A DNA stretch of 52,769 nucleotides from the NCBI GenBank assembly GCA_038316135.1, contig JBBQAL010000004.1, positions 1-52,769 on the forward strand, written 5' to 3'. Below the pieces are notes generated by a model that saw only the letters and a program-made list of their open reading frames with translations, was not told the origin of the DNA and made no database searches. This stretch comes from Candidatus Nanopelagicales bacterium. Its GTDB lineage: Bacteria > Actinomycetota > Actinomycetes > JAHEKZ01. Position numbers and translations under genes: made by a program. Of this stretch, positions 17,787 through 33,592 are shown one piece after another (positions within the stretch are counted from its first letter, which is position 1; each line of letters starts with the position of its first letter).

Positions 17787-18388
17787 TCGGCCGCAGGCCC
17801 GCTGGGGAGGCGGGGCGCGACGACGATCGCCCCTGGATCGTCGTCGGCCTTGGCAACCCAGGGACGGAGTACGAGGGAAACCGCCACAACGTCGGGTTCC
17901 AGGTTGTCGACGCGTTAGCCGGTCCAGGCAGATTCAAGGCCCACCGACGCGCGAAGGCTCTTGTCTGGGAGGGCCGGGTCGACAACCACCGCGTCGTGCT
18001 CATCAAGCCCACCACGTACATGAATGACAGTGGCCAGGCTGTTGCCCCGCTCTGCTCTTTCTACAAAGTGACACCTGACCGTGTCATAGCCGTTCACGAC
18101 GAGCTCGACCTGCCGTTCGGCTCCCTGCGGCTCAAGCTCGGTGGCGGGGACAACGGCCACAACGGGTTGAAGTCGATGCGGCAATCGCTCGGGACTGGCG
18201 ACTTTTTTCGAGCCAGGGTGGGGATCGGCCGCCCACCGGGACGGATGGACGCGGCTGCTTTCGTGCTCCGCGACTTCGCGGCAGCCGAGCGCGTTGCAGT
18301 TCCGGAATTGGTGACCCGGGTAGCTGACGCAGTCACGGCGCTCATGGAACACGGGCTCGACATCGCGCAGTCGCAGTTCAATGACTGA
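17783..18388 (+). CDS. pth: Peptidyl-tRNA hydrolase (start codon non-canonical or uncertain)
   Basis: The frame contains WIVVGLGNPGTEYEGNRHNVGF, KPTTYMNDSG, HDELD, GGDNGHNGLKS and RVGIGRPP. There is no ATG/GTG/TTG between the in-frame TGA at 17741 and the N-terminal motif. CTG 17783 overlapping the rplY stop is the best candidate start. Confidence 0.9.
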   Translation: MIGRRPAGEAGRDDDRPWIVVGLGNPGTEYEGNRHNVGFQVVDALAGPGRFKAHRRAKALVWEGRVDNHRVVLIKPTTYMNDSGQAVAPLCSFYKVTPDRVIAVHDELDLPFGSLRLKLGGGDNGHNGLKSMRQSLGTGDFFRARVGIGRPPGRMDAAAFVLRDFAAAERVAVPELVTRVADAVTALMEHGLDIAQSQFND

Positions 18389-18427: not shown

Positions 18428-19813
18428 ATGTCAACGACACCGCGCCGCCACGTGGCGGCCGTCGTCGCGTCAGTTCTTGCTGCCGGGCTGCTGCCACTTG
18501 TGCTGACGGTGCCCTCGGCGGCAGGGACCGGCCGGGTGATTGATGGGTCTTCATTCGAGCGCTCGCTGAGTGGTTGGGTGGCGGCGACAGGTGCGACTCG
18601 GCTCGACCGCGTCAAGCGAGGGCGTGGCACTGGCAGTTCGGCCGCTCGCCTGCGGCCACCGGCGGATCGGGCAGCCACCGTCGGTATAGCCAACGCACCA
18701 GCTGCTGAGCGGTCGACCCAAGCCAGGGCCAGGTACACCGCAACGGCGTGGGTGCGAGCAACATCGCGCGCTGTTCGGCCAGGTGCCGTGACCGTCCGGC
18801 TCTCCCTTGGCGAGCGGACCAAGTCAGGTCGCGGCCCGACCGCTTGGCAGGGGCGACGTCTGAGCGACCGGCACTGGCACAAGGTGAGCGTGCCTTTTAC
18901 CTCCCGCAAAGACGGCAGGAGGATCGACCTGACAGTCCGGGCGGTAGATGTTCCTCGAGGTGGAGCGGTTCTCGTCGACGACATCCGCCTCGTTCGCGGG
19001 CCACAGCCTGCGGCAGCTGACCGTGTTCTTTCCGGAACTCGGTTCGGCGCAAGCGTGGATGAAGGGCGCCTCGATTGGCTGCGGGCCCTGCACAAGTCTG
19101 ATCAGCGCTACACACGGATGGAGGTTGTGCGGGTCTTTGAACCTGTCATCCGTGATGGGTGGAGTGGCCGACTTGGTGACGTCAACCGTCCCATGTCCGT
19201 CTCCTTTGTTGCACCGGCTTCGCAGGTGCTCTCGGGTGAGCATGACGCGACTCTGCGTGCCTGGTTCCGCCACGCTCCGGCCGGCGACCCGATCTGGTGG
19301 ACCTACTGGCACGAGCCGGAGGACAACGTGGCCGCGGGTGACGTCTCGGCCCGGCGCTACCGCGCCGCCTGGCGGCACATCAATGCAATCGCACAGCGGG
19401 TCGGTGGCGCCAATCTCCATCCAACGCTCGTGCTGATGGCTTGGACGGCGAAGTCAGCATCGGGGCGGCAGGTGCGCGACTATTACCCGGGTGACTTCAT
19501 CGACGTGATGGCCTGGGATGGGTACAACCCGCCGGGCTCCCGGGGGTACGCGTCACCTCGCGAGATCTTCGGCCCTGCCGCAGCCGCGACGAAGCGGCTG
19601 GGAAACCGCTTCGCCATCGCCGAGGTGGGCAGTGTCCTGGTACCCGGTGACGAGGGCAGCCGACGTGCTCGGTGGCTGGTCGACGTCGCGCGGTTTGCGG
19701 CAGCCAGGAGCGCCGCATTCGTCAACTACTGGGACGCGAAGATCCCCGATGAGGACTATCAGCTCCGCGACCTGCCGTCCCGGCTCGCTTGGCGGTCGGT
19801 CGTCAAGGACTAG
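18428..19813 (+). CDS. Secreted glycoside hydrolase #2: Arg-rich CBM-like domain plus GH26-like domain, paralog of 15377-16915
   Basis: Signal peptide; SFERSLSGW...YTATAWVR...LVDDIRL; FGASV, MEVVRVF, YWHEPEDN, AWDGY and FAIAEVGSVLVPGD, all collinear with hydrolase #1. Confidence 0.75.
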   Translation: MSTTPRRHVAAVVASVLAAGLLPLVLTVPSAAGTGRVIDGSSFERSLSGWVAATGATRLDRVKRGRGTGSSAARLRPPADRAATVGIANAPAAERSTQARARYTATAWVRATSRAVRPGAVTVRLSLGERTKSGRGPTAWQGRRLSDRHWHKVSVPFTSRKDGRRIDLTVRAVDVPRGGAVLVDDIRLVRGPQPAAADRVLSGTRFGASVDEGRLDWLRALHKSDQRYTRMEVVRVFEPVIRDGWSGRLGDVNRPMSVSFVAPASQVLSGEHDATLRAWFRHAPAGDPIWWTYWHEPEDNVAAGDVSARRYRAAWRHINAIAQRVGGANLHPTLVLMAWTAKSASGRQVRDYYPGDFIDVMAWDGYNPPGSRGYASPREIFGPAAAATKRLGNRFAIAEVGSVLVPGDEGSRRARWLVDVARFAAARSAAFVNYWDAKIPDEDYQLRDLPSRLAWRSVVKD

Positions 19814-19831
19814 CGGTGGCGGTTATTGCTG

Positions 19832-20764
19832 TCAGAGCCCGCGGCCGGTCCGGTGCAGCTGGCGGAGCACCCAGTCAGGTGAAAGCAACCCAGCCGCGAC
19901 GCCGAGCGCGAGATATGCGCGTGGCTCTGTCGGCCGGCGCCTCATCGCCTGGAGTGCCCAGCGCGCACCGGCGCGCCGTTCGTGGTCTGCGGCTGTCGCG
20001 AACGCGATCTGCCCCATGACGCGCGCCTCCCCGGCAGGGATGTCGCCGAACTCCGGGTATCGCTCCAGCAACCATGGCAAAGCTGAGCGGATCGTCGTCC
20101 ACCTGGCGGTGAAGTAGGAGCTTTTCGACCAGAGGACTCGAACACCGACCTCCGGAACGTTGAGCACCGGGTGGCTCCTGGCTGCTCGAAGCAGGAACTC
20201 GTAGTCCTCTCCGTAGCTTCCGGGGATTTCCTCCTCGACAAGGCCAAATCCGTCGATCACGGCCTTGCGCCTCATGACGAACGTTGATGGGTGCAGTTCG
20301 GTCAGGCGGTCCCTGAGCAGGTCGGTCAGGGTGACTGTGCGTTGGTCGAGGACACGCGCATGGCGGCTGTCGCCGTACTCGACCTCAATTCCACAGCAGA
20401 CCAGCTCGGCGGTCGCGTCAATGTTCAGGGCAGTTACCTGGGCCTGCAACTTGCCAGGTAGCCAGGTGTCATCGTCGTCGCAGAAGGCGACGAGTTCGGC
20501 ATCAGCGGCAAGGAGTCCGGAGTTACGGGCTCCCGCAAGACCTGGTGTTCGCGTGTTGGTGACCACGACGACTTTGCGGTCGTCCATAAGGCCGAGTGTT
20601 GGGTCATTCTCAAGGGATGCGTCTGGAGTCGACTGGTCGTAGACGACGAAAACTCTGATCGACCCTGGGTAGTTCGAGGTCAAGATGGCGGCAATCGTTG
20701 CGCGCAACAGGACAGGTCTGTCGCGGGTGGCAACGACGACGTCGACATCGGGGAACTCGCTCAC
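19832..20764 (-). CDS. Family 2 glycosyltransferase
   Basis: VVVATRDRP, GLAGARNSG, AFCDDDDTWLPGKL, GEDYEFLLR. GTGA overlap with the upstream fusion gene. Confidence 0.92.
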   Translation of the reverse strand: MSEFPDVDVVVATRDRPVLLRATIAAILTSNYPGSIRVFVVYDQSTPDASLENDPTLGLMDDRKVVVVTNTRTPGLAGARNSGLLAADAELVAFCDDDDTWLPGKLQAQVTALNIDATAELVCCGIEVEYGDSRHARVLDQRTVTLTDLLRDRLTELHPSTFVMRRKAVIDGFGLVEEEIPGSYGEDYEFLLRAARSHPVLNVPEVGVRVLWSKSSYFTARWTTIRSALPWLLERYPEFGDIPAGEARVMGQIAFATAADHERRAGARWALQAMRRRPTEPRAYLALGVAAGLLSPDWVLRQLHRTGRGL

Positions 20765-22203
20765 GGCATCCTCGAGCCGTATCCATAGTGTCGTTGGAGT
20801 GGCAGGGTGAGTGCGCTGACGAACCGGCGTCGACTCGTTGGCATTTCGGCTTGCCACGACTGGTCAGACTTGATGCTGATGTCGCCAGACGCGAACCGCA
20901 TGGGGTTGCCGGCAACGGTGTGCGATGCATTGACGTGAAGGACGTCCCCATTCAGGAACTTAAGGATCTCAGCTCCATCCTCGATACCCGCGAACTGCGC
21001 TGCGGCGAGCAGGACGTCCTTCGGTGCCTCGACGAAGTCCTCGTACCGCACCCTGAGGTATGGGTGTCGCCGTTGCATCTGTTCGATCACTGCGTTCTGA
21101 ACGTCCCACAGCACAGCAGCTTTGGCTGGACCGTAGACCGGCATCGGTTCGCCTCCGGCCTCCGGGCGCGCGATCTTCTTGGTCCAGGCATGGGCAACGG
21201 CCCGGCTGTCCCTGACCACATGGAGCAGTCGCAGGTCGACGCCCTCGACCTGCGAGAGCATGAGCGCGTACGAGGCGTGCTTGCTTGAGTCGATGATGAC
21301 GCGAGCCCCTGAGACCTCAGCGAGAGCCCGGTACAGCTGGGCGAGCCGGTCGAGGTACTTGGCATGACGTTGCCGGTACCTCGGCGACAGCCCGGGACGA
21401 AGAAGTAGCGGCAGGTATCGATTGCGATCGACGGAGTAACGGAGGGCTACAGCCTCGTCGGCATCGAGTGCTGCCCATCCACCGAAGGCCACCTCGCCGA
21501 CGCTCTGCCAGAAGGGGCAGGCCGAGAACGGCTGGCCACAGCCGCAAAGCTCGTTGTCGCGCAGGCCTCGGTCCCAGAGGTGCACCGACTCGCCGATGTT
21601 GAGCACGCCAGGAAGCTCGCCGAGTGCTCGTTCCAGCAAGGTGGTCCCGCTGCGACCCTGGCCGCCGATGTACACAACCGTGAGTGGGTCGGTGTTTGGG
21701 GTGGTGACGGTGGTCGGTGAGAGGGCAGCGATGAGTTCGCCGACTCGGCGGACGCCCGATGGCGCAGTGTCGCGGTGGCTTGATTTGTCGCGGGGTCGGG
21801 AAAGTGCTTGCTGCACGAGGGCGTCAAGGGCGGCTAGATCGGGTGCAGCAACGACGATTCCGGCATCGGCAATGCGCCGAACGAAGCGCAGCTGGTGTCC
21901 GTCGATGTGCTCGTGGTGGGAGGGGTCTCGGGCCAGGCAGACGGGCAACAGACCGCTTCGTCTGACGTCGGTGATGGTTGCAGGGCCTCCGTGGCAGACG
22001 ACCGCATCCGCACGTGCGATCTCGGTTTGCAACTGCGCGTGGTCAAGGAGTCGGGCGCGCTCTCCGTTGACCGGAGGACGAGCTGCACCGTACTGGATGA
22101 ATACCTCGTGTTCGGGGTGGTGGGCGGCAAAGCCGTCAGCCCAGCTCACGAGTCTCTGGAAGGGATGGAAGTCGGTCCCCACCGTGACCAGGATACGGCT
22201 CAC
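20761..22203 (-). CDS. Fusion protein: Alg13/PssE/CpsG-like glycosyltransferase subunit plus CHST-like PAPS-dependent sulfotransferase
   Basis: N-terminal ILVTVGTDFHPFQRL, FIQYG, ADAVVCHGGPATI and EHIDGHQ; C-terminal GGQGRSGTT (5'-PSB), LLHVVRDSRAV (3'-PB) and RVRYEDF. One open frame; GTGA overlap with the Alg14-like gene. Confidence 0.85.
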   Translation of the reverse strand: MSRILVTVGTDFHPFQRLVSWADGFAAHHPEHEVFIQYGAARPPVNGERARLLDHAQLQTEIARADAVVCHGGPATITDVRRSGLLPVCLARDPSHHEHIDGHQLRFVRRIADAGIVVAAPDLAALDALVQQALSRPRDKSSHRDTAPSGVRRVGELIAALSPTTVTTPNTDPLTVVYIGGQGRSGTTLLERALGELPGVLNIGESVHLWDRGLRDNELCGCGQPFSACPFWQSVGEVAFGGWAALDADEAVALRYSVDRNRYLPLLLRPGLSPRYRQRHAKYLDRLAQLYRALAEVSGARVIIDSSKHASYALMLSQVEGVDLRLLHVVRDSRAVAHAWTKKIARPEAGGEPMPVYGPAKAAVLWDVQNAVIEQMQRRHPYLRVRYEDFVEAPKDVLLAAAQFAGIEDGAEILKFLNGDVLHVNASHTVAGNPMRFASGDISIKSDQSWQAEMPTSRRRFVSALTLPLQRHYGYGSRMP

Positions 22204-22673
22204 AGCAGGGGTCCAACGAGCACTGAGCCAGGGTAGAGGCGCTGCTGCTCCTCCCACTGCACGCAGAAGTGCGTGCTGAGCGGTCGACAGAGGCGCCCGG
22301 TCATCGTGCGACTGTCGATCCGGTCATAGACCTCGACGTAAATGGTGGGGATTCCCTTCGCACGTCCGAGCAGAAAGAAGGGATAAGCGACAGCGGCACC
22401 CGTCGACACGATCACATCTGGCTGTTGCTTGGTGATCACCTTCTTGGCGAGAACCGTGTTCCGCATCAAGTTCGGCACGTTGCGGGTGGTGGGGTGGTGC
22501 GCCCAAGTGACGTCTTCAGCCACGAGCTGAGAGACGGCATCGGCGGTATCAAACGTCACCCAGTGTCGTTGCTCCCTGGACCACAGTGGTGCCAAGGCCA
22601 ACAGCTGAGCCAGGTGACCTCCGCTGGAACCGACCAGGAGGGCGCGGCCGGAAAGGTCGGCAACAGACTCCAT
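22200..22673 (-). CDS. Alg14/PssD/CpsF-like glycosyltransferase subunit
   Basis: LVGSSGGHLAQL, PDVIVSTGAAVAYPF, IYVEVYDR, TMTGRL, VQWEE. Confidence 0.9.
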   Translation of the reverse strand: MESVADLSGRALLVGSSGGHLAQLLALAPLWSREQRHWVTFDTADAVSQLVAEDVTWAHHPTTRNVPNLMRNTVLAKKVITKQQPDVIVSTGAAVAYPFFLLGRAKGIPTIYVEVYDRIDSRTMTGRLCRPLSTHFCVQWEEQQRLYPGSVLVGPLL

Positions 22674-22802
22674 GCCGTCCCCCGTTCGTTATCGATCCCC
22701 GTCTCGTGCAGCCCATTGTTCCGTGCTTACGACGGCCGCATGCGGGCATGTCCAAAGACAGGACAAATGGGTGACGCCAATCGGGTGAATGCGTCGTTGG
22801 CG

Positions 22803-24293
22803 TTAGCGACGGCGCCGCAGCGCCGTCGAGAGCTCGGCGAGATGCAGTTGGCCCCGGAAGATTCGGGTGAACGCTATGTAGGTGGCTGCACAGAGCACGA
22901 TGGCTACCCCGAGAGCGATCCAGGTCTGGCCCAACAGCACGGCAACAGCGCCGGCTGGAATGGCCACCGCCACCACGTTGGCGAGCACTGCGTACCCCGT
23001 CCCCAGCTCGAAAGGGTGGAGACCGTCAGAGCGGGCCAGCTGGATGACCGAGAGCGCGTTGATCACCACGATGCTGACGCCCCAAGCGATCGCTGCTCCG
23101 AATGCGCCCCACGTCGGCACGAGAGCCAAGATCAACACAACTTGCGTAGCGAGCGCCCCGAGTGAGTTGGCAAGCGTGGCGCTGGTGCGGCCCGTCATGC
23201 TGAGCATGACGTCGACCATGCCCGACCCGTTTCCGATGAAGGCGGCGATGCAGAGGGTCACGGTTACTGGCCAGGCCGACACATAAGCCTCTCCAAAGAT
23301 ACTGAGGAGCAGTGGGCTGAAGATGGCGACGCCGATGTAAAGGGGGCCGTTCAGCAAAATGATCCAGGTGGTCGTGGACCGGTAGAGGGAAGCGATGGAA
23401 GCCTTGCGGTCAGTGGCCGAGAGGCTGGCGATCTGCGGTTGGGCAGCCAGCGCGAGCGCGGAGTTGGTGAGCTGCCCAACGACGAGGAACCGGGTGGCGA
23501 TGGCGTAGATCGCTGCTTCGGCAGGGCCACGTAACGCCGAGACCAAGACGATGTCGAAGCGCTGCCGAGCCTGTTGCACCACACTGGTGATGGCTCGGGG
23601 CCAGGTGAACCGCCAGAAGTCGGCGCGGAGTCCAGGATCGACCGGCGAGTGGCCGCGGACTGTTGTTCGCGCCAACCACAGCCCGGCGATAACAAGGAGA
23701 CCGAAGTACGGCAGCGCCCACGCCGCCGTTACGGCAACGATGCCACCCATGGCGACGGCACCAACTGTGAGCACCAGTTGTGCCGCGGGTCGCGCGATGC
23801 GGTCAAGGGCTGCCGTTGGAGTCATGGTCCCTAGGCCACGGGTGGCACCCAGGAGGGCGTCGAATCCGACGATGGCGGGAAGTGCCAACGCCAGGACGCG
23901 GAGGAGTTGCGTTCCCGTGTCACTTCCGTCCAACAGCAGGTCGGAAGCGATCGGCGCTCCGGCAAACAGCACCACAGCTCCGAGCAGCGACAGTGCCAGA
24001 ACAGGACGAAGAGCTATGACGAGCAGCGATCGGAGCTCGTGCGCACGGCCCAACTCGCGTAGCCGTGCGACCCAGTAGACCAGTCCGATCGAGGTACCAA
24101 GGCGAGCGATCGTCGCGACCAGTAGCACCACCGATGTTGCAGCGAAGTAGAGACCGGTGTCCTCTTCTGAAAATGATCGTGCGACCACAACCGAGAGTGC
24201 GATCCCCAAGCCAGCTGCGATCGCCGCGGCTGCGACATTCTGCGAACCCCCACGGCCAATGCGGTGCAGGTGCGTGGCAGGTTGTTCGCTCAT
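22803..24293 (-). CDS. wzx: Polysaccharide flippase (Wzx / MOP superfamily)
   Basis: About 12-14 hydrophobic segments; GLYFAATS, FWRFTWPR, RFDIVLVSAL, AIYAIATR. ATGA overlap with the sulfotransferase stop. Confidence 0.85.
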   Translation of the reverse strand: MSEQPATHLHRIGRGGSQNVAAAAIAAGLGIALSVVVARSFSEEDTGLYFAATSVVLLVATIARLGTSIGLVYWVARLRELGRAHELRSLLVIALRPVLALSLLGAVVLFAGAPIASDLLLDGSDTGTQLLRVLALALPAIVGFDALLGATRGLGTMTPTAALDRIARPAAQLVLTVGAVAMGGIVAVTAAWALPYFGLLVIAGLWLARTTVRGHSPVDPGLRADFWRFTWPRAITSVVQQARQRFDIVLVSALRGPAEAAIYAIATRFLVVGQLTNSALALAAQPQIASLSATDRKASIASLYRSTTTWIILLNGPLYIGVAIFSPLLLSIFGEAYVSAWPVTVTLCIAAFIGNGSGMVDVMLSMTGRTSATLANSLGALATQVVLILALVPTWGAFGAAIAWGVSIVVINALSVIQLARSDGLHPFELGTGYAVLANVVAVAIPAGAVAVLLGQTWIALGVAIVLCAATYIAFTRIFRGQLHLAELSTALRRRR

Positions 24294-25150
24294 CGCCGCC
24301 ACGAAGGCGTTCGACCCCACCACTGCGCGAGCCGCTCGTCGAGCGGGGCGTAGTGCGCATTCAGCCTTGCCCGAAGATCGTCGCTCATGGGGGCGCGGGA
24401 GCGGGCATTGTGACGTTCGAAGGCGACGTCTTGGTCGGCAATCCCCAAGAAGGTGGTGACCTTGGGCCAGTCCTTCTCAGGTGCTGACCAGAAGTCCGCG
24501 CTGTCGAGAACGAGCATCTGCTCACGTCCGACGGCTCGTTCCATGCGCTCCAACTGGTCGATGTACTCACCGCGCTGAACGTACGCCAAGTGCTGGTGGA
24601 CCAAGCTCCGAGTGATCTCGCCGTTCCGAAGTCGTTCCTCCTCGCCAGCGAGGCGCTCTGACTCGAGTGCCAGGGCGTGCTCGAATGTCTCAGTCTCGAA
24701 GCCACGCGCGAGTTCGTGCGCGTGGGCTGAGTAGGCACGCTCGACTGGATCGCGGAGGAGGGCGATGACTCGGACGCCCGGAAGCGTCTTGGCGATTCGT
24801 TGCGCGGTGAGTGGGTGCCATAGGTAGTAAGGGCTTGACTCTCCCACCGCTGCCCGCCCGTCGCCACTGCGCTGCACGTTCTCGACTGCGCTCCGTAGCG
24901 GGAAGTGGGCTCGGTACCAGTCAAGCGACTGCTCGGGTTGTAGGTCGAAGTAGTGCACGCCCTTGCGCATAGTCGGGCCGAGGAACGCCCGGTGCTGAGC
25001 CAGCGCTTTGAAGAGGGTGGTGGTGCCGCATCTTTGACCGCCGACAATGAGCATGTCGGGGAGGACGCGCCGCGATGCAGTTCGCTGTCCGAGCTGGTCG
25101 GCGGCAACGAGAGCGGCCTTGCGACCAACGCCTTTGACGGTGCTGCTCAT
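24290..25150 (-). CDS. PAPS-dependent sulfotransferase, heparan-sulfate 3-O/N-sulfotransferase-like
   Basis: IVGGQRCGTTTL (5'-PSB), KGVHYFD, WYRAHFP, GESSPYY, LLRDPVERAYS (3'-PB), RGEY..QLER. Confidence 0.88.
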   Translation of the reverse strand: MSSTVKGVGRKAALVAADQLGQRTASRRVLPDMLIVGGQRCGTTTLFKALAQHRAFLGPTMRKGVHYFDLQPEQSLDWYRAHFPLRSAVENVQRSGDGRAAVGESSPYYLWHPLTAQRIAKTLPGVRVIALLRDPVERAYSAHAHELARGFETETFEHALALESERLAGEEERLRNGEITRSLVHQHLAYVQRGEYIDQLERMERAVGREQMLVLDSADFWSAPEKDWPKVTTFLGIADQDVAFERHNARSRAPMSDDLRARLNAHYAPLDERLAQWWGRTPSWRR

Positions 25151-26337
25151 CAGTCACCGACTCCTCGTCGGACCTGACGGGAGCGGCGCTGTACGAGGAG
25201 TGTTGTGAGGGAGGGGAGTAGCCAGTCTTCCACTGACCCCAGCCTGGCCCCGGCTAGCGATTGGTTGTCGTCGAGGTAGCGCCCTGCGAGTTCGAGCAGA
25301 TAGCCAGCCGTGGTGAGTTCTGCGACCGCTCGCTCGCGCACACCGAACGGGCGCAACAACCGCGGAGCGTTGTCGAACAGGTCAAAGGGAAGCGAATGCA
25401 GGTCTCGAACTGAGGGGGCATGCGACATCAGATAGAGATGCAATGCGTCATAGCCGATCGGTATCCCGGTAGCGAACCGTTCCCAGTCCCAGACGGAGCA
25501 GCCCGATGCGGTGACGGCCATGTTGGTGCGACGCCAGTCGCCGTGCCAGGAACCCCATTGGAGTGAACCGTCACTTGCCTGGTCGACCCAGCGCTTGGCC
25601 AGTTCAGCGAAGGCCGCCACATGCTTCTGCGCCTGTACGTCAGTAGCGACTCTGTGTTGCCACTGCTGGGCTACGGCGCCAAGCGCTGCTTCACCGTCGA
25701 TCGCTCCGCGGCCAATCGAGGCGACCTCGACCTGTGCGGCAACGACAGCTGCTGAATCACCTACGCGAGGCCCCCGGGTTGGAACCGGTGACTGGAGAAC
25801 GTAGGGGTGCGACTGGTGCTCACCAAAGGCGAGGAGCCGCGGTGCGCGAACCGATGTGAGGTCGGCGGCCGAATCCAAGGCAGCCGCCTCGCTACGCACC
25901 AGCCGATCGGTCAGCGCGTCGATACCGCACTTGACGAAGGCCGCCAGATCGCCATCCGTCGTCGCGAGCACCAGCACGGGTTTGCGGTTGGCCCGAGGCG
26001 GGCCGAGGTGGACCCCGTAGACGTACTCAGCGTCCGGTAACTGTTCGATCGCGACGGCCAAGATGTCCGGATCCGGGAGATGGATGGCGTGTACGCCTGA
26101 CGCCAGCGCGACGCGGGCCGCGAGTGTCCGAGCCCGTGCGCTGAACGACGACTTGTCGCGAAGCGCGTTCAAGATGACTCCAGCAGCCCGATGCGGGCGA
26201 GTCGGCACCACCAGACGTGGGTGCTCGACGGAGGGCAGCAACACGAACCGACTCGGTGATGAAGTCGGGGCATGGCCGCCGTTCAGAATCTCGGCATCCC
26301 AGAGCTGGCTGAGTGCGCCGGCGTCGACGGTGGTCAA
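25150..26337 (-). CDS. APH/choline-kinase-fold phosphotransferase of unknown specificity
   Basis: AFVKCG (beta-3 Lys), SEAAAL (alpha-C Glu), HGDWRRTN (catalytic loop), WDWE (Mg-binding). TTG 26337 overlaps the wzy stop (TTGA). Confidence 0.65.
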   Translation of the reverse strand: MTTVDAGALSQLWDAEILNGGHAPTSSPSRFVLLPSVEHPRLVVPTRPHRAAGVILNALRDKSSFSARARTLAARVALASGVHAIHLPDPDILAVAIEQLPDAEYVYGVHLGPPRANRKPVLVLATTDGDLAAFVKCGIDALTDRLVRSEAAALDSAADLTSVRAPRLLAFGEHQSHPYVLQSPVPTRGPRVGDSAAVVAAQVEVASIGRGAIDGEAALGAVAQQWQHRVATDVQAQKHVAAFAELAKRWVDQASDGSLQWGSWHGDWRRTNMAVTASGCSVWDWERFATGIPIGYDALHLYLMSHAPSVRDLHSLPFDLFDNAPRLLRPFGVRERAVAELTTAGYLLELAGRYLDDNQSLAGARLGSVEDWLLPSLTTLLVQRRSRQVRRGVGD

Positions 26338-27806
26338 GATGAGCCCCACTGCGGAGTGAGGGGTCGAAAGCCGGAGTCGCTGAGCCGCGGCACCACCGGG
26401 TCGGGGTGGCCTTCGTGTCGATCTCGTTCGTTCCGCCACAGCAAGGCAACCGAGATCATCAGCAGCGACAGTGTCGAACTGATTCCGACGTAGACGAAAA
26501 TATAGAAGAGCTGGACCAGCACGATGGTGTGTGCCGCAAGTCCGATCGGTGTGACATCACGCCGGAATCGCCAAAGGATTCCCACGAAGAAGCCCATGAA
26601 GGCCACGAGCCCAACCACTCCCTGCGAGTAGAGGACGTTCCAGGCGTGACCGGTACTTCCGATGGTGCGGTTACCGCATCGGGGGCATTCAGGTGTCGCG
26701 CCGATCGCAATCGACTCATCGCTGCCTACGGTCTCTCGCGTGCTCCCGTACCCGATCAACGGTGAGCTGAGCGCTCCAGCGATCGAGGCTTGGGCGAGTG
26801 AGCTGCGTACTTGGTTGCTGTTGCCGGCGTCAGCTCGACTCGTCACTACTGTGCCGAGCGGAGTAACAGCGAGTACCAGCAGGCCTACCGCCGCGACCGC
26901 CAGAAGTGCACCGATCAGCCATGGGCGACCAGCGAGCGCAAGACGCAGGACCGCGTAACAAGTGGCGAGGGCCAAGCCGAGCCAGAGCCCGCGGTTGAGC
27001 GAGTAGACGATGGGAACGACTGCGACGCCAAGGGCGGCGATGCCCCAGAGTCGACGCTTGGCGGTTCCGTAGATGATCCAGCCGATGATGAACCAGATGA
27101 TGAGGATCGAGAGGTTGTTTCCCCATGCATTCGTGAACTCGAAAGGGGCGTTGGGGCGTGGGTCGCCGGTGCCGATGACGTCCTGGATCTGCGCGACCTG
27201 CGGGTGAACCATGGTCAGGATGCCCCGCGGCACTCCGTTGAAGACCAGCCCGAGAGCCAGCTCGACCGGTGACTTCCAGGCCAGCGTTGGCAGGGCCAGG
27301 CCGACGTAACCACCGACCAGCGTCATGATGAAAAGAATGCCGAGCCACCGCACGATGCGAAGCCTGGGAACATCCCGTTCGGACAGGTTGCCGACATAGA
27401 GCAGCACAACCGTCGCGCCGAGGTACTGCAAGGTGCGCAGCACGTAGGCGTCCAGCCCCTGGGCGAACGTTGTCGGCAGTGTGTCGGGTGCGTTCACGCC
27501 AAGGACGATGGCGCCGATCATCGACCAGGCGACGAAGAGCAGCCAGAGCCCGAACCAAGGTGGCACCTCGATGTGCCTGCGGCCCTTGAGCTCCCACGCC
27601 ATCGGAATGGCCGCAAGGGGAAAGACCAAAGCCCCGAGCCCGAGCGCCCACCACAGCGGGTAGCCGACGAGTGCGGCCATGAGCGGCCACCCCGCGGGCC
27701 ATCTGGCCGGATTCCACCAGGCGATGGCTGTCGCCGGGATGGCGTCAACCGACGGCTCGGGTTGTGTCGTCCACCGGGGCGTCAGAGGAACTGAAGTCGA
27801 TGACAT
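26334..27806 (-). CDS. wzy: Wzy polymerase / O-antigen ligase family membrane protein
   Basis: Many TM helices; RPNAPFEFTNAWG, YSLNRGLW, periplasmic loop with R...GYG, and HAWNVLYSQGVVGL (Wzy_C pattern). Confidence 0.75.
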   Translation of the reverse strand: MSSTSVPLTPRWTTQPEPSVDAIPATAIAWWNPARWPAGWPLMAALVGYPLWWALGLGALVFPLAAIPMAWELKGRRHIEVPPWFGLWLLFVAWSMIGAIVLGVNAPDTLPTTFAQGLDAYVLRTLQYLGATVVLLYVGNLSERDVPRLRIVRWLGILFIMTLVGGYVGLALPTLAWKSPVELALGLVFNGVPRGILTMVHPQVAQIQDVIGTGDPRPNAPFEFTNAWGNNLSILIIWFIIGWIIYGTAKRRLWGIAALGVAVVPIVYSLNRGLWLGLALATCYAVLRLALAGRPWLIGALLAVAAVGLLVLAVTPLGTVVTSRADAGNSNQVRSSLAQASIAGALSSPLIGYGSTRETVGSDESIAIGATPECPRCGNRTIGSTGHAWNVLYSQGVVGLVAFMGFFVGILWRFRRDVTPIGLAAHTIVLVQLFYIFVYVGISSTLSLLMISVALLWRNERDRHEGHPDPVVPRLSDSGFRPLTPQWGSS

Positions 27807-27808
27807 CG

Positions 27809-29383
27809 TCAGCGCGTCTGTGCCGTGCTCACCGGTGAGCTGCCTGAGTCCTTGGCCGGGTCCTTGGCTGGGTCCTTGGTTGGATTCTGTGTCGACTGTG
27901 AGGCGATAGCCCGGGGCGGCGCTGAGTCAGGGGGCCCGAACGCGGGAACGGTGACAGCACCTGGGACGGTGGTTCCGACCAGGTTCCACTGTCGGACACC
28001 GTTCTCGACGGAGTCGCGAACCGTTCGGCCGATCTCGATCACTGGAAGCGCTGCTCGGGCATGGCGACCGAACAGCTGGGCGTCAGCCGCAACGTCGTTG
28101 GGCCGTGACCGAATCAGCAAGAAGTGGGTCTGTCCGGCGAGCGTCTCCAGCACAGGGGTGATGCCGCTGCCCTCGAGGTCCTCGATCTCGGAGTCGAGTC
28201 CGTGCCCGGCCGCAAGAAGGAACAGGCCCTGGAGGTCGGGAACGCGGTGGGCAGCGCGATCCACCGTCAGTCGCCCGCGGAGGACTTCGGTGAGGCCGTC
28301 TGTGGCCGGCATGCCGAAGAGGTCGGCGATCTGCGACGACTCGTCGGCGACCAGGAGCGTGGTGCTGTACCCGGCACGTGCAAGGGCGACGGCCAGGTTC
28401 GCAGCGACGACGTCGGCGCCGTAACCCTCGCTCGGTGAGGCAATCACGAGGGTTGCCGGTTCGTCACCGAGGCCACTGAGGATGGCATTGCGTACTCGAC
28501 CAAAGGCCTCGGCCCCGGGCGAGTGCGGCTCGAAGAGTGGGGCTGGGCTTTCGGCTGTTCCCGGCACATCGGCCAAGACAGCAAGGCCAAGCCTGCGCTC
28601 AACGGTGCGCCAGTCGTAGCACCGGCCGTCGCGTCGCTCCAGTAGCAGGAGGCTCATCAGGCCAACGAGGAGCCCGAAGGCGAGCCCGCTGGTCAGGACG
28701 AGTCCGGCGTTGGGGCTGGCGGGACGCTTGGGCAGCAGCGAGTCGCTGATCACCTTTCCGGGGTCGACCCTGGTGCCGTCGACGGAAGCCTTCCTGGTGT
28801 TGAGAGTCTGAAGAGCGGTCTCAAGTCCAGTCCGCTCGTCGGCCGTTGCGCTCGGAAGCTGAGACGCCAGCTCGGAGATCTGCTGGTTGAGCGCTCGGGA
28901 CTGCTCAGCAAGCAGATCTTCAGCGGTCTCGCGCCGGTTGCTGAGGTAGCCGTCGGCATAGGCAGCAGCTCCGATCTGAGCAGCTTCTGCGGAGCCGGCG
29001 GAGAAGCTGATCCGCAGGACGTTGGTGTTCGGGGGGACATCCACCGACACGTTCTGTACGAGCTGTCCGACGATCTCCGGCGTCTGCAGATTCACCTTGG
29101 CACGAGAAGAGACGGCCTGGGAGGTCACGATCTGGGCTTCGGTGTCGAGGTTGACCCCCGAGTTGGTCCTGGCGTTGTCGACGGCGCTGTCGAACTCGAC
29201 ACCGATGGGGTTGACGAGAACCGACGACGTCGACACGTAGGTCTTCGGTGCGACCAACAAGAACGCCGCAGCCAGGCCAAGCCCGAGCAACGCACCGAGA
29301 GCGACGACCCACCACCGGCGTCGGAAGGCTCCCGCGTACTCACCCAGGGTGGCGCCCCCGTGCTGACCACTGTCCTGTTCCAC
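27809..29383 (-). CDS. Polysaccharide co-polymerase (Wzz/CpsC plus degenerate BY-kinase/CpsD domain)
   Basis: N-terminal RRRWWVV TM, TYVSTSSVLV, coiled region, proline-rich LPKRPASPN before TM2, then EAFGRVRN and a P-loop-like fold. RBS AAGGGGAG before GTG 29383. Confidence 0.82.
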   Translation of the reverse strand: MEQDSGQHGGATLGEYAGAFRRRWWVVALGALLGLGLAAAFLLVAPKTYVSTSSVLVNPIGVEFDSAVDNARTNSGVNLDTEAQIVTSQAVSSRAKVNLQTPEIVGQLVQNVSVDVPPNTNVLRISFSAGSAEAAQIGAAAYADGYLSNRRETAEDLLAEQSRALNQQISELASQLPSATADERTGLETALQTLNTRKASVDGTRVDPGKVISDSLLPKRPASPNAGLVLTSGLAFGLLVGLMSLLLLERRDGRCYDWRTVERRLGLAVLADVPGTAESPAPLFEPHSPGAEAFGRVRNAILSGLGDEPATLVIASPSEGYGADVVAANLAVALARAGYSTTLLVADESSQIADLFGMPATDGLTEVLRGRLTVDRAAHRVPDLQGLFLLAAGHGLDSEIEDLEGSGITPVLETLAGQTHFLLIRSRPNDVAADAQLFGRHARAALPVIEIGRTVRDSVENGVRQWNLVGTTVPGAVTVPAFGPPDSAPPRAIASQSTQNPTKDPAKDPAKDSGSSPVSTAQTR

Positions 29384-29482
29384 GTTTCTCCCCTTGCCGA
29401 GTCGGTACCGGAAGGTTACGGGTGCCACGGTGCCGCTCGTGCCTGGCCGACGGTGGATTCACCCAGGTGGTCGCCGGACTGA

Positions 29483-29508
29483 TGACTCTCAGTAGTCACA
29501 AAGTGACT
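29483..29508. promoter_or_regulatory. Overlapping palindromes in the divergent promoter region of the polysaccharide locus
   Basis: AGTCAC-AAA-GTGACT (29494-29508) overlaps TGACT-N6-AGTCA (29483-29498). Confidence 0.4.
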
Positions 29509-29647
29509 GTCAGCACGGATACATCGGCCGATGGTTCCCTTTCTGCCTCCCAGCCTTCCGTTGACGGCGAACACCCTCTGTAATGGACCCGATGCTGGCG
29601 TCGGGTGCGCCGCAATGTGGAGCAGGACCAATGTGGGGGGTAGCACG

Positions 29648-32602
29648 GTGATCGGTCGAGGACGCTGCGTGGCAGCGACGGTAGCTCTCGTCACTTTGGT
29701 TGGGGGGCTCCTTGGCCCGGTCAGCGCCGCTGGCGCGGCTCCGGCCGACCAGCAGTTGGCGAGCGCCAACCCAGAGAACGACACCCCGCGGGTCCTCGAC
29801 GGTCGGGTGCAGGCCATCACCCGCATCGGCGACACGGTCGTTGTGGGCGGGACATTCACTCAGGTCCAGGAGGCCGCACCGAACTCGCCCATCCTGCCCC
29901 GTACCGGGCTCTTCGCCTTCGACGCGAACACCGGTGCTGTGAGCAACGCCTTCAACCCTCAGCTGGGTGCCAAAGCGGGTTCGATCCCTGGCGTCGATGC
30001 TCTCGCGGTCGCCCCCGGTGCGCAGGCGGTCTATGTCGGTGGCGACTACCGCACCATCAACGGCAGTGGTCCGGCCCGCCTTCAGGCTGTGAAGCTCTCG
30101 GACGGAACGCGGCTGGCCAGCTTTGCGAATCCAGTCTTCAACAGTCGGGTCTACGACCTGAAAGTGGTGGGCGACCGGCTTTACGTTGCCGGGTCGTTTA
30201 CGTTGGCGGGATCTGCCGAACGTAAGGGACTGGCGACACTTGACGCCACAACGGGCGTTTTGACGACAGCAGTTTCGCTGCCGTTTACCGGGACAGCGGC
30301 TGGAGTGGGTGTCACCACGGTGCGCAAGATCGAGCTCACACCAACCGGTGACCGTCTTGTTGCCATTGGAAACTTCAACGCTGTTGGCGGCACTGCGCGC
30401 ATGCAGATCGCCATGCTCAATACTTCGGGTGCTTCGGCCACCCTCGATAGCTGGGACACGGCGCGCTTCGGCGGTGCTAACTGCAGTGCCTACTTCGACA
30501 CCTACATGCGCGACGTCGACGTATCTCCTGACGGCTCATTCTTCGTGGTGGTCACGACGGGAGGCTGGGGTGGCGACGCGACGAAGCTCTGCGACAGCGC
30601 CTCGCGATGGGAGACGTACGGCGGCGGCGCTCAGCAGCCAACGTGGGTCAACTACACCGGCGGCGACACGTTCTGGGCCCTTGAGATCACCGGACCGGTT
30701 GCTTACGTGGGCGGCCACTTCCGCTGGATGAACAACCTACTGACCAGGGACGGCAAGTCGGCCGGCCCCGGCGCCGTCGATCGTCCGGGGTTGGCGGCGC
30801 TCGACACCCGCAACGGGCTGCCCTTCTCGTGGAATCCAACGCGCACCCGCGGTGTCGGCGTCTTCGATTTCAACGTCACTCCCACTGAGCTGTGGGCCGG
30901 GTCCGACACAGCAATCTGGGCGGGGGAGCGGCGCGACCGGCTCGCTGCCTTCCCATGGGATGGCGGGCTGCCACTGCCGAACGACAAGCAGGGGTCGCTT
31001 CCAGGCGACGTCGTTCAGCTCGATGCCGACACCGTCAGCGGCATCGATGCGACGTCGCGATACCTCTCGGGTACCTCGAGCCCTGCAACGGCTGCCCTGG
31101 CGACCGGGGGCGTTGACTGGTCCAAGCTTCGCGGTGCGTTCATGGTGAACAACACCCTGTACACCGGCTGGAGCGATGGCACGCTTAAGCAGCAGTCCTT
31201 CGATGGCAACGTCTTCGGGCCGCAGTCGAACGTGCCGCTGTACGGCAACCAGCTCAGCAGTGACCTCACCGCCACCAGCGGGCGGGTCACCAGCATGTTC
31301 TACGACAAGCGCACCGGCCGCCTCTACTACACCCGTGCCAACACCACCAAGCCAAACGGGCAAAGCAACTCAGATGGTGGACTGGTCTATCGGTACTTCA
31401 CCCCTGAGTCCGGGATCGTTGGTGCCGAACGTTTCGCCGGGCTCATGCCAGCTTCACGCGTGGCGATCGACGCCGGGAATGTGCGTGGGACGTTCCTGGT
31501 CGGCGACATCCTGTACTACGTGACCTCAGCGGGCGCGATGCGCAGTGTCCCCTTCTCCACCGTTGGTGCATTCGGCACCACCCAGTCGGTGAACAGCGCC
31601 ATCAACTGGGCCGCCAAAGGGCTCTTCCTGTCGACGCAGCCGTCGATCCAGGCTCCCAACGCGGCACCGACCGCTGCCTTTACCCAGACCTGTGTGGGGC
31701 TCTCCTGCTCGTTCGACGCAACGTCGTCGACAGACGGAGACGGCACGGTTGCCTCGTACTCATGGAACTTTGGTGACGGTTCGGCCACCGAGAACGGGGC
31801 CAAACCAGACCACGTATTCCCGGCCGGCGGCAGCTTCCCGGTCACCCTCACTGTGACCGATAACGACGGTGCCACCGGTGATGTCATCGCCAACGCTGTG
31901 GTGGCCCCGATCGCTAGCACCGTTGCGTTCCGCGACGCCGCCAAGTACGAGGGCAAGCAGCTGCGGGTGCATGAGTGGCAGCTTCCCGGGTCGATCCAGG
32001 AGGGTGACACGATCGTGATGGCGGTGTCAGGACACCGGGCGGCCGACCCAGGCTCGGTCCTCGACACTGACCAGCTAGCGCTTGCCGGTTGGAGTGAAGT
32101 GGCCGCTGTCTCCGACATCGACAACCCGACGGTGATCTACACGAAGACAGCAACGGCGCAAGACGCCGGCCGCACCGTATCGGTGCAGTGGGTGGACGGC
32201 ACCGGTGCCAGCATCTCCGTGCGAACCATAGCCAGCATGGCTGTCTACTCAGGTGTCGCGGCGGTGTCGCCCGTGGAGTCAGGCATCGAAGGGTCCACAA
32301 CCAACGTCTTCGCGCACACTGCGCCCAATGTCACCGTTCCTGGTGATGGTGACTGGGTTGTCACGTATTGGTCAGACCTCTCGGGCAGCACGACTTCCTG
32401 GGCTCCGCCGGCAGGTCAGGTGGAGCGGGTGGACGGCACGTCGTTCGTCGATCCTGCGACGCCGACCACGGTACGAGTCTCCGGTTTGCTGACCGACGAC
32501 GGTGCGCCGACCCTTGCCGGCGTGCGAGCCGGGCTCACTGCGACCGCCTCCGGCAAGTCGACATCGGCGACGATGGCCTCGATCGTGCTGCAGTCGCAGT
32601 AG
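29648..32602 (+). CDS. Large secreted protein: beta-propeller-like repeats, PKD domain and C-terminal beta domain
   Basis: Signal peptide; repeated VVVGGTF / VYVGGDY / LYVAGSF / AYVGGHF blades; PKD NAAPTAAF...SFDATSSTDGDGTVASYSWNFGDG...HVF...VTLTVTDNDG. Start uncertain (GTG 29648 chosen). Confidence 0.8.
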   Translation: MIGRGRCVAATVALVTLVGGLLGPVSAAGAAPADQQLASANPENDTPRVLDGRVQAITRIGDTVVVGGTFTQVQEAAPNSPILPRTGLFAFDANTGAVSNAFNPQLGAKAGSIPGVDALAVAPGAQAVYVGGDYRTINGSGPARLQAVKLSDGTRLASFANPVFNSRVYDLKVVGDRLYVAGSFTLAGSAERKGLATLDATTGVLTTAVSLPFTGTAAGVGVTTVRKIELTPTGDRLVAIGNFNAVGGTARMQIAMLNTSGASATLDSWDTARFGGANCSAYFDTYMRDVDVSPDGSFFVVVTTGGWGGDATKLCDSASRWETYGGGAQQPTWVNYTGGDTFWALEITGPVAYVGGHFRWMNNLLTRDGKSAGPGAVDRPGLAALDTRNGLPFSWNPTRTRGVGVFDFNVTPTELWAGSDTAIWAGERRDRLAAFPWDGGLPLPNDKQGSLPGDVVQLDADTVSGIDATSRYLSGTSSPATAALATGGVDWSKLRGAFMVNNTLYTGWSDGTLKQQSFDGNVFGPQSNVPLYGNQLSSDLTATSGRVTSMFYDKRTGRLYYTRANTTKPNGQSNSDGGLVYRYFTPESGIVGAERFAGLMPASRVAIDAGNVRGTFLVGDILYYVTSAGAMRSVPFSTVGAFGTTQSVNSAINWAAKGLFLSTQPSIQAPNAAPTAAFTQTCVGLSCSFDATSSTDGDGTVASYSWNFGDGSATENGAKPDHVFPAGGSFPVTLTVTDNDGATGDVIANAVVAPIASTVAFRDAAKYEGKQLRVHEWQLPGSIQEGDTIVMAVSGHRAADPGSVLDTDQLALAGWSEVAAVSDIDNPTVIYTKTATAQDAGRTVSVQWVDGTGASISVRTIASMAVYSGVAAVSPVESGIEGSTTNVFAHTAPNVTVPGDGDWVVTYWSDLSGSTTSWAPPAGQVERVDGTSFVDPATPTTVRVSGLLTDDGAPTLAGVRAGLTATASGKSTSATMASIVLQSQ

Positions 32603-32611
32603 GGATCTGTC

Positions 32612-33592
32612 ATGACCGTCGTCTACCACATCGAGACACACCGGAACCCTCGACAGATCGAGAGTCTGGTTCGGGCCATCGTCCGAGGTGCGCCTGACGC
32701 GCTTGTGGTCGTCGACCATGACCGATCCTTCGATGCGCCCGATCCCGGAACCCTTGCTCGCCTTGGGGCCGAGCTGCGGCTCTCCGACGGTGGCTACGGC
32801 GACATGACACACGTCGATCGTTGGCTGACCACCGCACGATGGCTTCGGGCCGAAGGGATCGAGTACAGCTATTTGACCAACCTCACCGGGCAGGACTACC
32901 CGGTGCGTCCGGTGGCGCAGATCCACGCCGACCTCGCCGGGTCTGGCGTCGACGCGTACATCCAGACGTTCGCGGTACTGGATCCGGACGAGACCAAGTG
33001 GGGAGTGGCGCGTGGTCGCACGCGCTATGAGTATCGGCACCGCCGACTCGGCCGACTCCGTCCTTGGCAACAGCGTGCCCTGCGTCCGGTGCAGATCGTG
33101 AACGCGGTACAGCCTTGGGTACGAGTCACCACCTCGGTCGGTCTCGCCCTGGGACGACGAGAGCGGGCGCCTTGGGGCGATGACCTCGTCCTGCGGGGCG
33201 GCTCCTTCTTCTGCACCCTCTCTCGGTCTGCCGTTGACGCGGTGCTGCGCTTCGACAACTTCCGGCCCGACGTCGCGGACTACCTTTCGGGGTCGATCGC
33301 ACCGGACGAGGTCTACTTGCAGACCGCCCTCGGCTGGGCGGTCGATCACGACCCCAAGGCCAGCAGCCTGGTCGTGGAAAACGACTGTCGTCGTTACTTC
33401 GACTTCTCCGAGAGCACCTTCAATCATCCACGGACGTTTACCAGCGACGACTTGCCAACGGTGCTCGGCAGTGGCGCCGACTTCGCTCGTAAGTTTGATG
33501 AGGCGTGCTACCCCGGCGTCCTGGAGGTTGTCGACCGGAGCCTCGACGAGGTCGAGGTGGCGATGCCACGCTCGGTCGAACTGGCCAGCTAG
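32612..33592 (+). CDS. GT14 family glycosyltransferase (core-2/I-branching beta-1,6-GlcNAc transferase-like)
   Basis: YHIETH, NLTGQDYPVRP, GSFFCTLSR, PDEVYLQT, FARKFD; 9 bp after the PKD gene. Confidence 0.8.
   Translation: MTVVYHIETHRNPRQIESLVRAIVRGAPDALVVVDHDRSFDAPDPGTLARLGAELRLSDGGYGDMTHVDRWLTTARWLRAEGIEYSYLTNLTGQDYPVRPVAQIHADLAGSGVDAYIQTFAVLDPDETKWGVARGRTRYEYRHRRLGRLRPWQQRALRPVQIVNAVQPWVRVTTSVGLALGRRERAPWGDDLVLRGGSFFCTLSRSAVDAVLRFDNFRPDVADYLSGSIAPDEVYLQTALGWAVDHDPKASSLVVENDCRRYFDFSESTFNHPRTFTSDDLPTVLGSGADFARKFDEACYPGVLEVVDRSLDEVEVAMPRSVELAS

Follow-up and report, generated by a model that had tools for sequence, protein, structure and literature searches.

Sulfated polysaccharides are usually regarded as animal, algal, or cyanobacterial products. 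Among bacteria, they have been stated to occur only in cyanobacteria (PMC8205485, PMC13390465), where the xss cluster of Synechocystis sp. PCC 6803 makes synechan, a polymer with measured sulfate at a sugar:sulfate ratio of ~8:2 (Maeda et al., eLife 2021, PMC8205485). A second system, the wps-1 cluster of Actinoplanes missouriensis, has been put forward as the source of a sulfated polysaccharide (Tezuka and Ohnishi, Appl Environ Microbiol, June 2026, PMC13390465). The DNA analyzed here (“the window”) is a stretch of 52,769 nucleotides from “Candidatus Nanopelagicales bacterium” (assembly GCA_038316135.1, contig JBBQAL010000004.1), a metagenome-assembled genome (MAG) of 3.02 Mb in 202 contigs with 86% completeness. 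It contains a polysaccharide locus with two sulfotransferase genes (ST1 and ST2). This locus and a module on a second contig (C136) are considered likely to encode the Wzx/Wzy-dependent assembly of a heteropolysaccharide that is sulfated, mainly beta linked, and probably also phosphorylated. The product would most likely be a surface or secreted, sulfate-decorated polymer of this uncultured actinobacterium.

The wps-1 cluster encodes a GT2 glycosyltransferase (WpsA), a sulfotransferase (WpsB), a GT26 glycosyltransferase (WpsC), a DUF4262 protein (WpsD), a GH26 hydrolase (WpsE), a methyltransferase (WpsF), a Wzx flippase (WpsG), a heparan-sulfate-type sulfotransferase (WpsH), a kinase-like protein (WpsI), Wzy (WpsJ), and Wzz (WpsK) (PMC13390465). 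Gene-by-gene knock-out indicated that normal sporangia need every wps-1 gene but wpsD, and also the neighboring sulfate adenylyltransferase/adenosine 5'-phosphosulfate (APS) kinase gene AMIS_7390; the knock-outs affect the bulk matrix (PMC13390465). Homology of the window proteins to this system was judged against locus L089 of an Actinoplanes sp., which has the same architecture as wps-1. The window proteins are collinear with L089 (identities in Table 1), and homology indicates that GT2, ST2, GH26, Wzx, ST1, the kinase, Wzy, and Wzz of the window are the counterparts of WpsA, WpsB, WpsE, WpsG, WpsH, WpsI, WpsJ, and WpsK, respectively. In both systems, the genes for Wzz, Wzy, the kinase-like protein, the sulfotransferase of NDST/3-OST type, and Wzx form a contiguous block in the same order, and the GT2 gene lies beside a gene for a Sulfotransfer_3-type sulfotransferase, accompanied by GH26. 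The Walker A motif of the co-polymerase is degenerate in both, and dependence on an APS kinase, genetic in wps-1, would be expected for the window. On these grounds the window locus is assigned to the wps-1 cluster family, as its majority variant, which has a sulfotransferase-bearing split Alg14/Alg13 transferase in place of GT26. The original prediction, which had been drawn from the DNA letters of the window, had presented the locus as a candidate new system; that claim is not supported, as the cassette is of the wps-1 type.

The assignment of function draws on observed domain identities, motif conservation, translational coupling of the eight minus-strand genes, recurrence of the gene set, linkage of homologous 3'-phosphoadenosine 5'-phosphosulfate (PAPS) and WbaP genes in relatives, and the homology to wps-1. 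Two different sulfotransferases are central to it. ST2 is one half of a fusion protein, in which residues 1 to 160 correspond to the Alg13/PssE-like nucleotide-sugar-binding half of a split GT-B transferase and residues 175 to 480 to a Sulfotransfer_3-type sulfotransferase. The motifs GGxGRSGxTL (5'-phosphosulfate binding), SSKH, and VRD (3'-phosphate binding) are invariant in alignment A1, the window's own loop reading GGQGRSGTTLL, and these PAPS-binding motifs stay invariant in relatives down to 43% identity. The ST2 profile matches CurM and olefin-synthase sulfotransferases. In the AlphaFold model of the fusion (predicted local distance difference test score [pLDDT], 83), the C-terminal domain resembles the CurM sulfotransferase and TPST, and the N-terminal domain superposes on the C-terminal halves of GT-B enzymes (GT1 and MurG). 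The PssE model scores the fusion at only 52.8 bits (cut-off, 120). An H-x11-C-x-C-x6-C pattern (H208, C220, C222, and C229) within the sulfotransferase domain (residues 208 to 232) is also invariant and resembles a metal site.

ST1 has PAPS loops that can be read directly (GGQRCGTTT and LLRDPVERAYS), and its PDB matches are a bacterial sulfotransferase (3rnl, 1.2e-20), NDST1 (1.3e-9), and 3-OST (4e-8), the NDST/3-OST matches ranging from 1e-9 to 1e-7. It is therefore predicted to be a cytoplasmic sulfotransferase of the heparan-sulfate NDST/3-OST type. The nearest solved relatives of both sulfotransferases are PAPS-dependent enzymes. Membrane and signal calls were made throughout with a simple hydropathy scan for hydrophobic segments, in which ST1 had no such segment and both sulfotransferases and the kinase had no signal peptide and no clear membrane segment. 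These three proteins would thus act before flipping, because PAPS and ATP are cytoplasmic.

The polymer might instead be unsulfated, the sulfotransferase- and kinase-like proteins being structural or regulatory or acting on a different substrate, e.g., a lipid or a small metabolite. Sulfate has been measured for no member of the cluster family, and ST2 is structurally nearest to sulfotransferases of a polyketide pathway (CurM) and of proteins (TPST) rather than of carbohydrates. This explanation is nevertheless highly improbable. Besides the invariance of its PAPS-binding motifs, ST2 shares a polypeptide with a glycosyltransferase half in 60 of 80 related loci (it is free in 18), genes for PAPS synthesis and for removal of 3'-phosphoadenosine 5'-phosphate (PAP) are physically linked to the cassette in many genomes, and the APS-kinase neighbor is required for the wps-1 phenotype (PMC13390465).

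The kinase-like protein has a beta3 lysine (K140), an alphaC glutamate (E154), and the motifs HGDWxxxN and WDWERF, all invariant in 23 homologues. The best folds for its structure model (pLDDT, 88.7) are fructosamine-3-kinase, APH(3'), homoserine kinase, and N-acetylhexosamine 1-kinase. The model thus indicates an intact small-molecule-type kinase, whose fold partners include several enzymes acting on sugar hydroxyls. The original prediction of two kinds of sulfate and perhaps phosphate is borne out at the level of the enzymes, namely two different PAPS-type sulfotransferases and this kinase; the decorations themselves are predicted from them.

Wzz has two membrane segments and a GNVR-like stretch, and its residues 300 to 492 match the tyrosine-autokinase models TIGR01005, TIGR03029, and TIGR01007. 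Its Walker A equivalent reads SPSEGYGAD, without GK[ST] and hence without the lysine, and the last 30 residues contain no Tyr. Both marks of a bacterial tyrosine kinase (BY-kinase), the Walker A motif and the Tyr cluster, are thus missing, and the cytoplasmic BY-kinase-like domain is judged degenerate from its sequence. Degeneracy of this domain is seen in 31 of 35 family members, including the one of the Actinoplanes type. The APH-fold kinase was considered as a stand-in for the dead BY-kinase, and this idea was rejected for want of any anti-correlation, because three of the four loci with a canonical GEGK[ST]T loop in Wzz also encode the kinase (L034, L043, and L064).

The sugars of the repeat can be approached through the glycosyltransferases. 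The Alg14 half of the split enzyme has no hydrophobic segment above the hydropathy threshold, and by best score the bacterial relatives of the pair are PssD/PssE/WelK and Cps14F/G. The GT14 match to Branch spans only positions 148 to 237 of the 250 in the profile, and GT14 appears, from its occurrence in related loci, to be an accessory member of the cluster family. Beta linkages are expected because all three glycosyltransferase families (the split GT-B enzyme, GT2, and GT14) invert.

The original prediction went further and proposed a glycosaminoglycan-like repeat of Gal/GlcNAc type with two sulfates, similar to keratan or heparan sulfate. Eukaryotic Alg13/Alg14 transfer GlcNAc, and animal GT14 enzymes make GlcNAc branches or xylosides, which counts for such a product, as do the expected beta linkages, typical of glycosaminoglycans, and the fact that among animal enzymes ST1 is most similar to the NDST and 3-OST domains of heparan-sulfate synthesis. 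However, this likeness of ST1 is the sole link to heparan and does not give the substrate, because it describes the enzyme fold. Apart from housekeeping glmU, no amino-sugar, uronic-acid, or other nucleotide-sugar genes were found in the window, and none of these kinds is recurrent in 81 related loci. In addition, the best bacterial relatives of the split transferase are glucuronosyl (PssD/PssE/WelK) and galactosyl (Cps14F/G) transferases, not GlcNAc transferases; the primer is a WbaP-type hexose-1-phosphate transferase, not a GlcNAc-1-phosphate transferase of the WecA type; and the associated hydrolases belong to GH26, a family acting on beta-mannans, beta-glucans, and beta-xylans. The authors of the wps-1 study predict galactofuranose and glucose (PMC13390465). 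Keratan- or heparan-like chemistry is accordingly an unlikely outcome, and that part of the original prediction is not upheld.

Two secreted GH26 hydrolases belong to the system, so that the locus exceeds the coordinates first given for it (19832 to 33592). The two copies are paralogues with 34 to 37% identity. A profile built from 18 family members (profile A2) matches the GH26 lichenase CtLic26A (2bv9) with an E value of 1.8e-17 over 260 positions, covering the whole catalytic domain, and GH26 mannanases more weakly. Six of the 18 members match Pfam Glyco_hydro_26, and the two window proteins alone fall short of the Pfam model. Single-sequence PDB searches with the 461-amino-acid protein and with the kinase gave nothing usable, and profile A2 or a structure model was needed. 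The WHEPE and IAExG motifs are conserved in alignment A2, with E296/E298 nearly invariant and E399 invariant, which agrees with the acid/base and nucleophile glutamates of a clan GH-A catalytic domain, and the N-terminal parts have weak CBM_4_9 matches. The copy at 15377 is inserted between prs and rplY, and its ATG precedes a signal-like hydrophobic segment.

The propeller-PKD protein, encoded divergently from the Wzz operon, is predicted to be secreted or membrane anchored and, like GT14, an accessory member of the cluster family. Its PKD domains match those of collagenases, and paralogues are encoded on contigs C68, C199, and C65.

No priming transferase was found within the window. A candidate is encoded on contig C136 (~38.6 to 45.0 kb; L002 5599 to 11965), where genes for a CysQ-like phosphatase, CysD, CysN, an APS kinase, and a WbaP-type phosphoglycosyltransferase lie between rpsA and coaE/uvrB. 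The APS-kinase protein (458 residues), encoded on the opposite strand, has a C-terminal APS-kinase domain (194.5 bits) and an N-terminal region of ~280 amino acids of no assigned family; the WbaP-type protein has 518 residues (Bac_transf, 221.6 bits). In 32 of 80 related loci, the cassette has homologues of the C136 genes no more than 10 kb away, usually in the order glmU-prs-rplY-pth-WbaP-CysQ-CysD-CysN-ST2-GT2, and WbaP homologues adjoin the cassette in 21 of 81. Because the homologues are cassette linked in relatives, the two separate chromosomal sites in this genome seem to be parts of a single functional unit, and the C136 WbaP would serve the window locus.

Actinobacterial CysH uses APS. 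Sulfite reductase and CysH are encoded on contig C160, and the genome has a single CysDN pair. Dedication of all the PAPS genes to the cassette was rejected, as CysDN also serves assimilation; specificity for PAPS use is confined to the APS kinase and the CysQ-like phosphatase.

Several points weigh against a sulfated Wzx/Wzy product. The primer and PAPS genes are unlinked to the cassette in this genome, and CysDN would be shared with sulfur assimilation, because sulfite reductase, CysH, and one CysDN pair are present. The assignment of the C136 module is not exclusive, because a second WbaP-like gene is found on contig C200 and a second sulfotransferase-bearing polysaccharide locus on contig C173, and the genome is a MAG of limited completeness. 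No chemistry is on record for any member of the cluster family, and the authors of the wps-1 study state that sulfation awaits experimental verification (PMC13390465). Finally, the Wzy_C match (25.1 bits) is under Pfam's cut-off of 31.7, and the Wzy fold also serves ligases and O-oligosaccharyltransferases, so that sequence cannot tell polymerase from ligase.

The last point raises the possibility that the Wzy-like protein is a ligase or O-oligosaccharyltransferase that places a short sulfated glycan on a cell wall acceptor or a secreted protein such as the propeller-PKD protein. WaaL ligases and PglL-type transferases also fall within the Wzy_C family, and the large secreted protein that is divergently encoded here recurs in 18 of 48 related loci. 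However, Wzz is encoded directly upstream of the Wzy-like gene and coupled to it, and is found in 28 of the 48 loci; dedicated endo-type GH26 hydrolases imply a polymeric substrate; and the wps-1 knock-outs affect the bulk matrix (PMC13390465). Transfer of a short glycan is therefore improbable. By hydropathy, Wzx has 12 hydrophobic segments and Wzy ~10 to 12, and the Wzx/Wzy-type locus of the original prediction is retained, with Wzx and Wzz above their Pfam cut-offs and Wzy below.

Polymerization of a sulfated repeat is thus the preferred reading, and the pathway is predicted as follows, including its catalytic steps, sugars, sulfation sites, kinase substrate, and the free, capsular, or wall-bound state of the polymer. 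The WbaP-type phosphoglycosyltransferase (C136) would prime undecaprenyl phosphate with hexose-1-phosphate. Alg14 and the Alg13 domain of the fusion would together form a MurG-like GT-B enzyme adding the second sugar in beta linkage, and GT2 and GT14 may add a third sugar and a branch sugar. At the cytoplasmic face, the Alg13-tethered ST2 and ST1 would each sulfate a different position of the lipid-linked repeat, with PAPS as the donor, and the APH-fold kinase may phosphorylate a sugar hydroxyl. CysD/CysN would supply APS and CysC would convert it to PAPS, with PAP removed by the CysQ-like phosphatase. Wzx would then flip the decorated repeat for polymerization by Wzy. Decoration of the lipid-linked repeat ahead of flipping is the general Wzx/Wzy scheme (PMC8205485). 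Wzz would set chain length without tyrosine-phosphorylation cycling, which is not proposed because the kinase-like domain is degenerate. The two secreted CBM-GH26 enzymes may trim or release the polymer.

The cassette is widespread. Relatives of the fusion number >1000 in a protein collection, of which at least 120 are full length, and a pattern scan with one genome per species found a relative of its sulfotransferase encoded in 551 species genomes. The carriers are mostly MAGs of Actinomycetes, Mycobacteriales, Frankiaceae, Sporichthyaceae, Streptosporangiaceae, and Acidimicrobiales, with a small number labelled Verrucomicrobiales or Chthoniobacterales. Among the cultured carriers are five Catellatospora species, Angustibacter sp. 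McL0619, Cellulomonas sp. APG4, and Actinomadura craniellae. Presence of the individual genes was counted by tblastn with the window proteins in 48 related loci of at least 18 kb (Table 1); because the set recurs in these loci, it is not a chance assembly. Similar loci in other actinobacteria, suspected from the window, are thus confirmed. Recurrent additional genes were sought in 81 loci by clustering open reading frames (ORFs) filtered by G+C content at third codon positions, with antisense ORF artefacts, which made up most of the extra “families,” removed by an overlap test. They encode a short GH26, DUF3048, further sulfotransferases, GT26, and a TauE-family transporter.

Most genomes of the genus, but not all, have the fusion. 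In two congeners without the fusion and in one genome of another genus of the same family, glmU-prs-rplY-pth-mfd are contiguous; relative to these three genomes, positions 18428 to 33592 and 15281 to 16915 of the window are extra DNA, with GH26 absent between prs and rplY. In congener G001 (contig C5, 323992 to 325426), the Alg13::sulfotransferase gene has an in-frame TGA and continues in another frame, and the cassette is apparently decaying in that genome. Flanking genes in the 81 related loci, from several orders, include pth (20 loci), rplY (17), prs (12), and glmU (11), and the cassette lies directly downstream of glmU-prs-rplY-pth in carriers of several orders (e.g., L024, L066, L079, and L084). 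The contiguous genomes give the picture of an insertion, but a recent genomic island is less fitting, given that this address is common to several orders, G+C content is not deviant, and no integrase was found among the scanned large ORFs. An old position with repeated losses, or exchange through conserved flanks, fits better.

Gene calls in the window combine the ORF listing with Pfam and NCBIfam profile searches of the window proteins, with starts placed at coupled codons (Table 1). All ten genes named in the original prediction were present where it placed them, between pth and mfd, and no integrase or transposase was found among the scanned large ORFs of the window. The minus-strand genes are transcribed in the order Wzz, Wzy, kinase, ST1, Wzx, Alg14, Alg13::ST2 fusion, and GT2. 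Their junctions, mostly NTGA or TGATG overlaps as first described, read TGAcgATG (Wzz/Wzy), TTGA or, with the kinase GTG start, a 16-nt overlap (Wzy/kinase), TGATG (kinase/ST1), ATGA (ST1/Wzx), and GTGA overlaps (Alg14/fusion and fusion/GT2), with a 129-nt gap between Wzx and Alg14. The GH26 gene at 18428 is convergent with GT2, at an 18-bp gap.

Table 1. Features of the window, their occurrence in 48 related loci, and their identity to Actinoplanes sp. locus L089
Feature	Positions	Strand	Profile match or remark	Related loci	Identity to L089
Wzz-type co-polymerase	27809-29383	-	Pfam Wzz, 32.5 bits (cut-off 25.5)	28/48	33%
Wzy-like polymerase (O-antigen-ligase-like membrane protein)	26334-27806	-	Wzy_C, 25.1 bits (cut-off 31.7)	39/48	40% (over 429 residues)
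APH-fold kinase-like protein	25150-26337 (TTG start) or 25150-26349 (GTG start)	-	Pfam APH, 26.7 bits	41/48	36%
Sulfotransferase ST1	24290-25150	-	Sulfotransfer_1, 40.3 bits	41/48	46%
Wzx flippase	22803-24293	-	Polysacc_synt, 50 bits (cut-off 28.2)	37/48	42%
Alg14/PssD/Cps14F-like protein	22200-22673	-	NF041549 PssD, 113.1 bits (cut-off 110); Pfam Alg14, 37 bits	41/48	
Alg13::Sulfotransfer_3 fusion (480 residues)	20761-22203	-	Glyco_tran_28_C, 32.9 bits (cut-off 22)	48/48 (fusion/ST2)	45% (ST2 domain)
GT2 glycosyltransferase	19832-20764	-	Pfam Glycos_transf_2, 65.6 bits	48/48	44%
Propeller-PKD protein (1023 residues)	29531-32602	+	PKD_4, 73.7 bits; propeller matches weak	18/48	
GT14 (Branch domain; Core-2/I-branching type)	32612-33592	+	Pfam Branch, 34.1 bits (cut-off 23.4)	9/48	
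CBM4_9-like + GH26, secreted	18428-19813	+	Family profile A2; signal-like N-terminus	24/48 (GH26)	
CBM4_9-like + GH26, secreted	15377-16915 (listed ORF from 15281)	+	Family profile A2		
pth	~17783-18388 (numbered from ORF 17741-18388)		Upstream flank		
mfd	33661-37185		Other flank		

The housekeeping flanks comprise metG, tatD, an Rpf-like gene, ksgA, ispE, glmU, prs, rplY, and pth on one side and mfd, mazG, eno, and ppx on the other. The pth gene is intact in frame, with its VGLGNPG and RHNVG motifs preceding the first canonical start (GTG at 17996) and no ATG, GTG, or TTG ahead of the catalytic motifs; the start is likely a CTG or ATC near 17783, at the rplY stop. A gene for a 2-phosphosulfolactate phosphatase (ComB-like) follows ispE (8917 to 9684), with no link to the sulfation locus seen. 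A fatty-acid desaturase gene followed by a gene for a TetR-family regulator (10852 to 12428, minus strand) is divergent from tRNA-Gln (12537 to 12612).

Elsewhere in the genome, the C173 locus (~17.2 to 29.2 kb), as read by tblastn and motifs, appears to encode a Wzx-like protein, two sulfotransferases, GT2, a Wzy/ligase-like protein, a polysaccharide deacetylase, GT4, and a repeat-rich secreted protein. One of its sulfotransferases is an unfused paralogue of the sulfotransferase domain of the fusion, with the same Cys triad.

The window adds comparative weight to the 2026 proposal of sulfated polysaccharides in actinomycetes, as the cassette is common, cultured genera included, and, in many lineages, physically linked to genes that make and recycle PAPS. 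Sulfated and phosphorylated glycans might, as a tentative suggestion, be an ancient feature common across soil Actinomycetota and not a peculiarity of Actinoplanes sporangia, with an assembly line on the lipid-linked repeat as its hallmark. If the proposed pathway is correct, the Alg13-tethered ST2 and the kinase encoded beside ST1 would place sulfate and phosphate at fixed positions of every repeat before flipping, so that the anionic pattern would be fully defined, in contrast to the patchily sulfated glycosaminoglycans of animals. The fusion and ST1 are also candidates for soluble bacterial carbohydrate sulfotransferases, a kind of enzyme wanted for making sulfated glycans enzymatically. 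Furthermore, two conserved features, the APH-fold kinase and the inactive kinase-like domain of Wzz, call for explanation and are accessible in culturable carriers.

Compared with wps-1, the window has an Alg14/Alg13 pair with a fused sulfotransferase where wps-1 has GT26 and a free sulfotransferase, and GT26, methyltransferase, and DUF4262 genes are absent from the window. The window adds GT14, the propeller-PKD protein, and two CBM-GH26 copies, and its primer and PAPS genes are on another contig, with CysDN and a separate CysC rather than a fused sulfurylase/APS kinase. The host, an uncultured actinomycete of ~3 Mb, is unlikely to form sporangia, judging from its small genome, and the biological role must therefore differ from that of wps-1. 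The presence of the cassette in such a small-genome lineage suggests that its role is probably general, e.g., in cation binding, hydration, or surface charge.

As anticipated in the original prediction, the literature searched contained no chemically characterized product of such a locus and no relevant chemically proven sulfated polysaccharide of an actinobacterium. Of the analogues with chemical proof, xss/synechan is the best. Compared by gene content, both systems have a Wzx/Wzy/polysaccharide co-polymerase pathway and two sulfotransferases of different subfamilies, which would act on the lipid-linked repeat. However, xss belongs to another phylum, is plasmid borne, and has eight glycosyltransferases, its own regulators, and an outer membrane exporter, and it lacks a kinase-like gene, GH26, and a transferase-sulfotransferase fusion.

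The split transferase has its own parallels in Cps14F/Cps14G of Streptococcus pneumoniae, PssD/PssE of Rhizobium, WelK, and eukaryotic Alg14/Alg13, although no relevant paper linking Cps14F/G with Alg13/14 was found in the literature search. Like these, the window pair consists of adjacent overlapping genes for an acceptor-side and a donor-side half and is predicted to act as a MurG-like GT-B enzyme, extending a lipid-linked primer by the second sugar. Unlike these, the Alg13 half of the window bears a C-terminal sulfotransferase domain of 300 residues.

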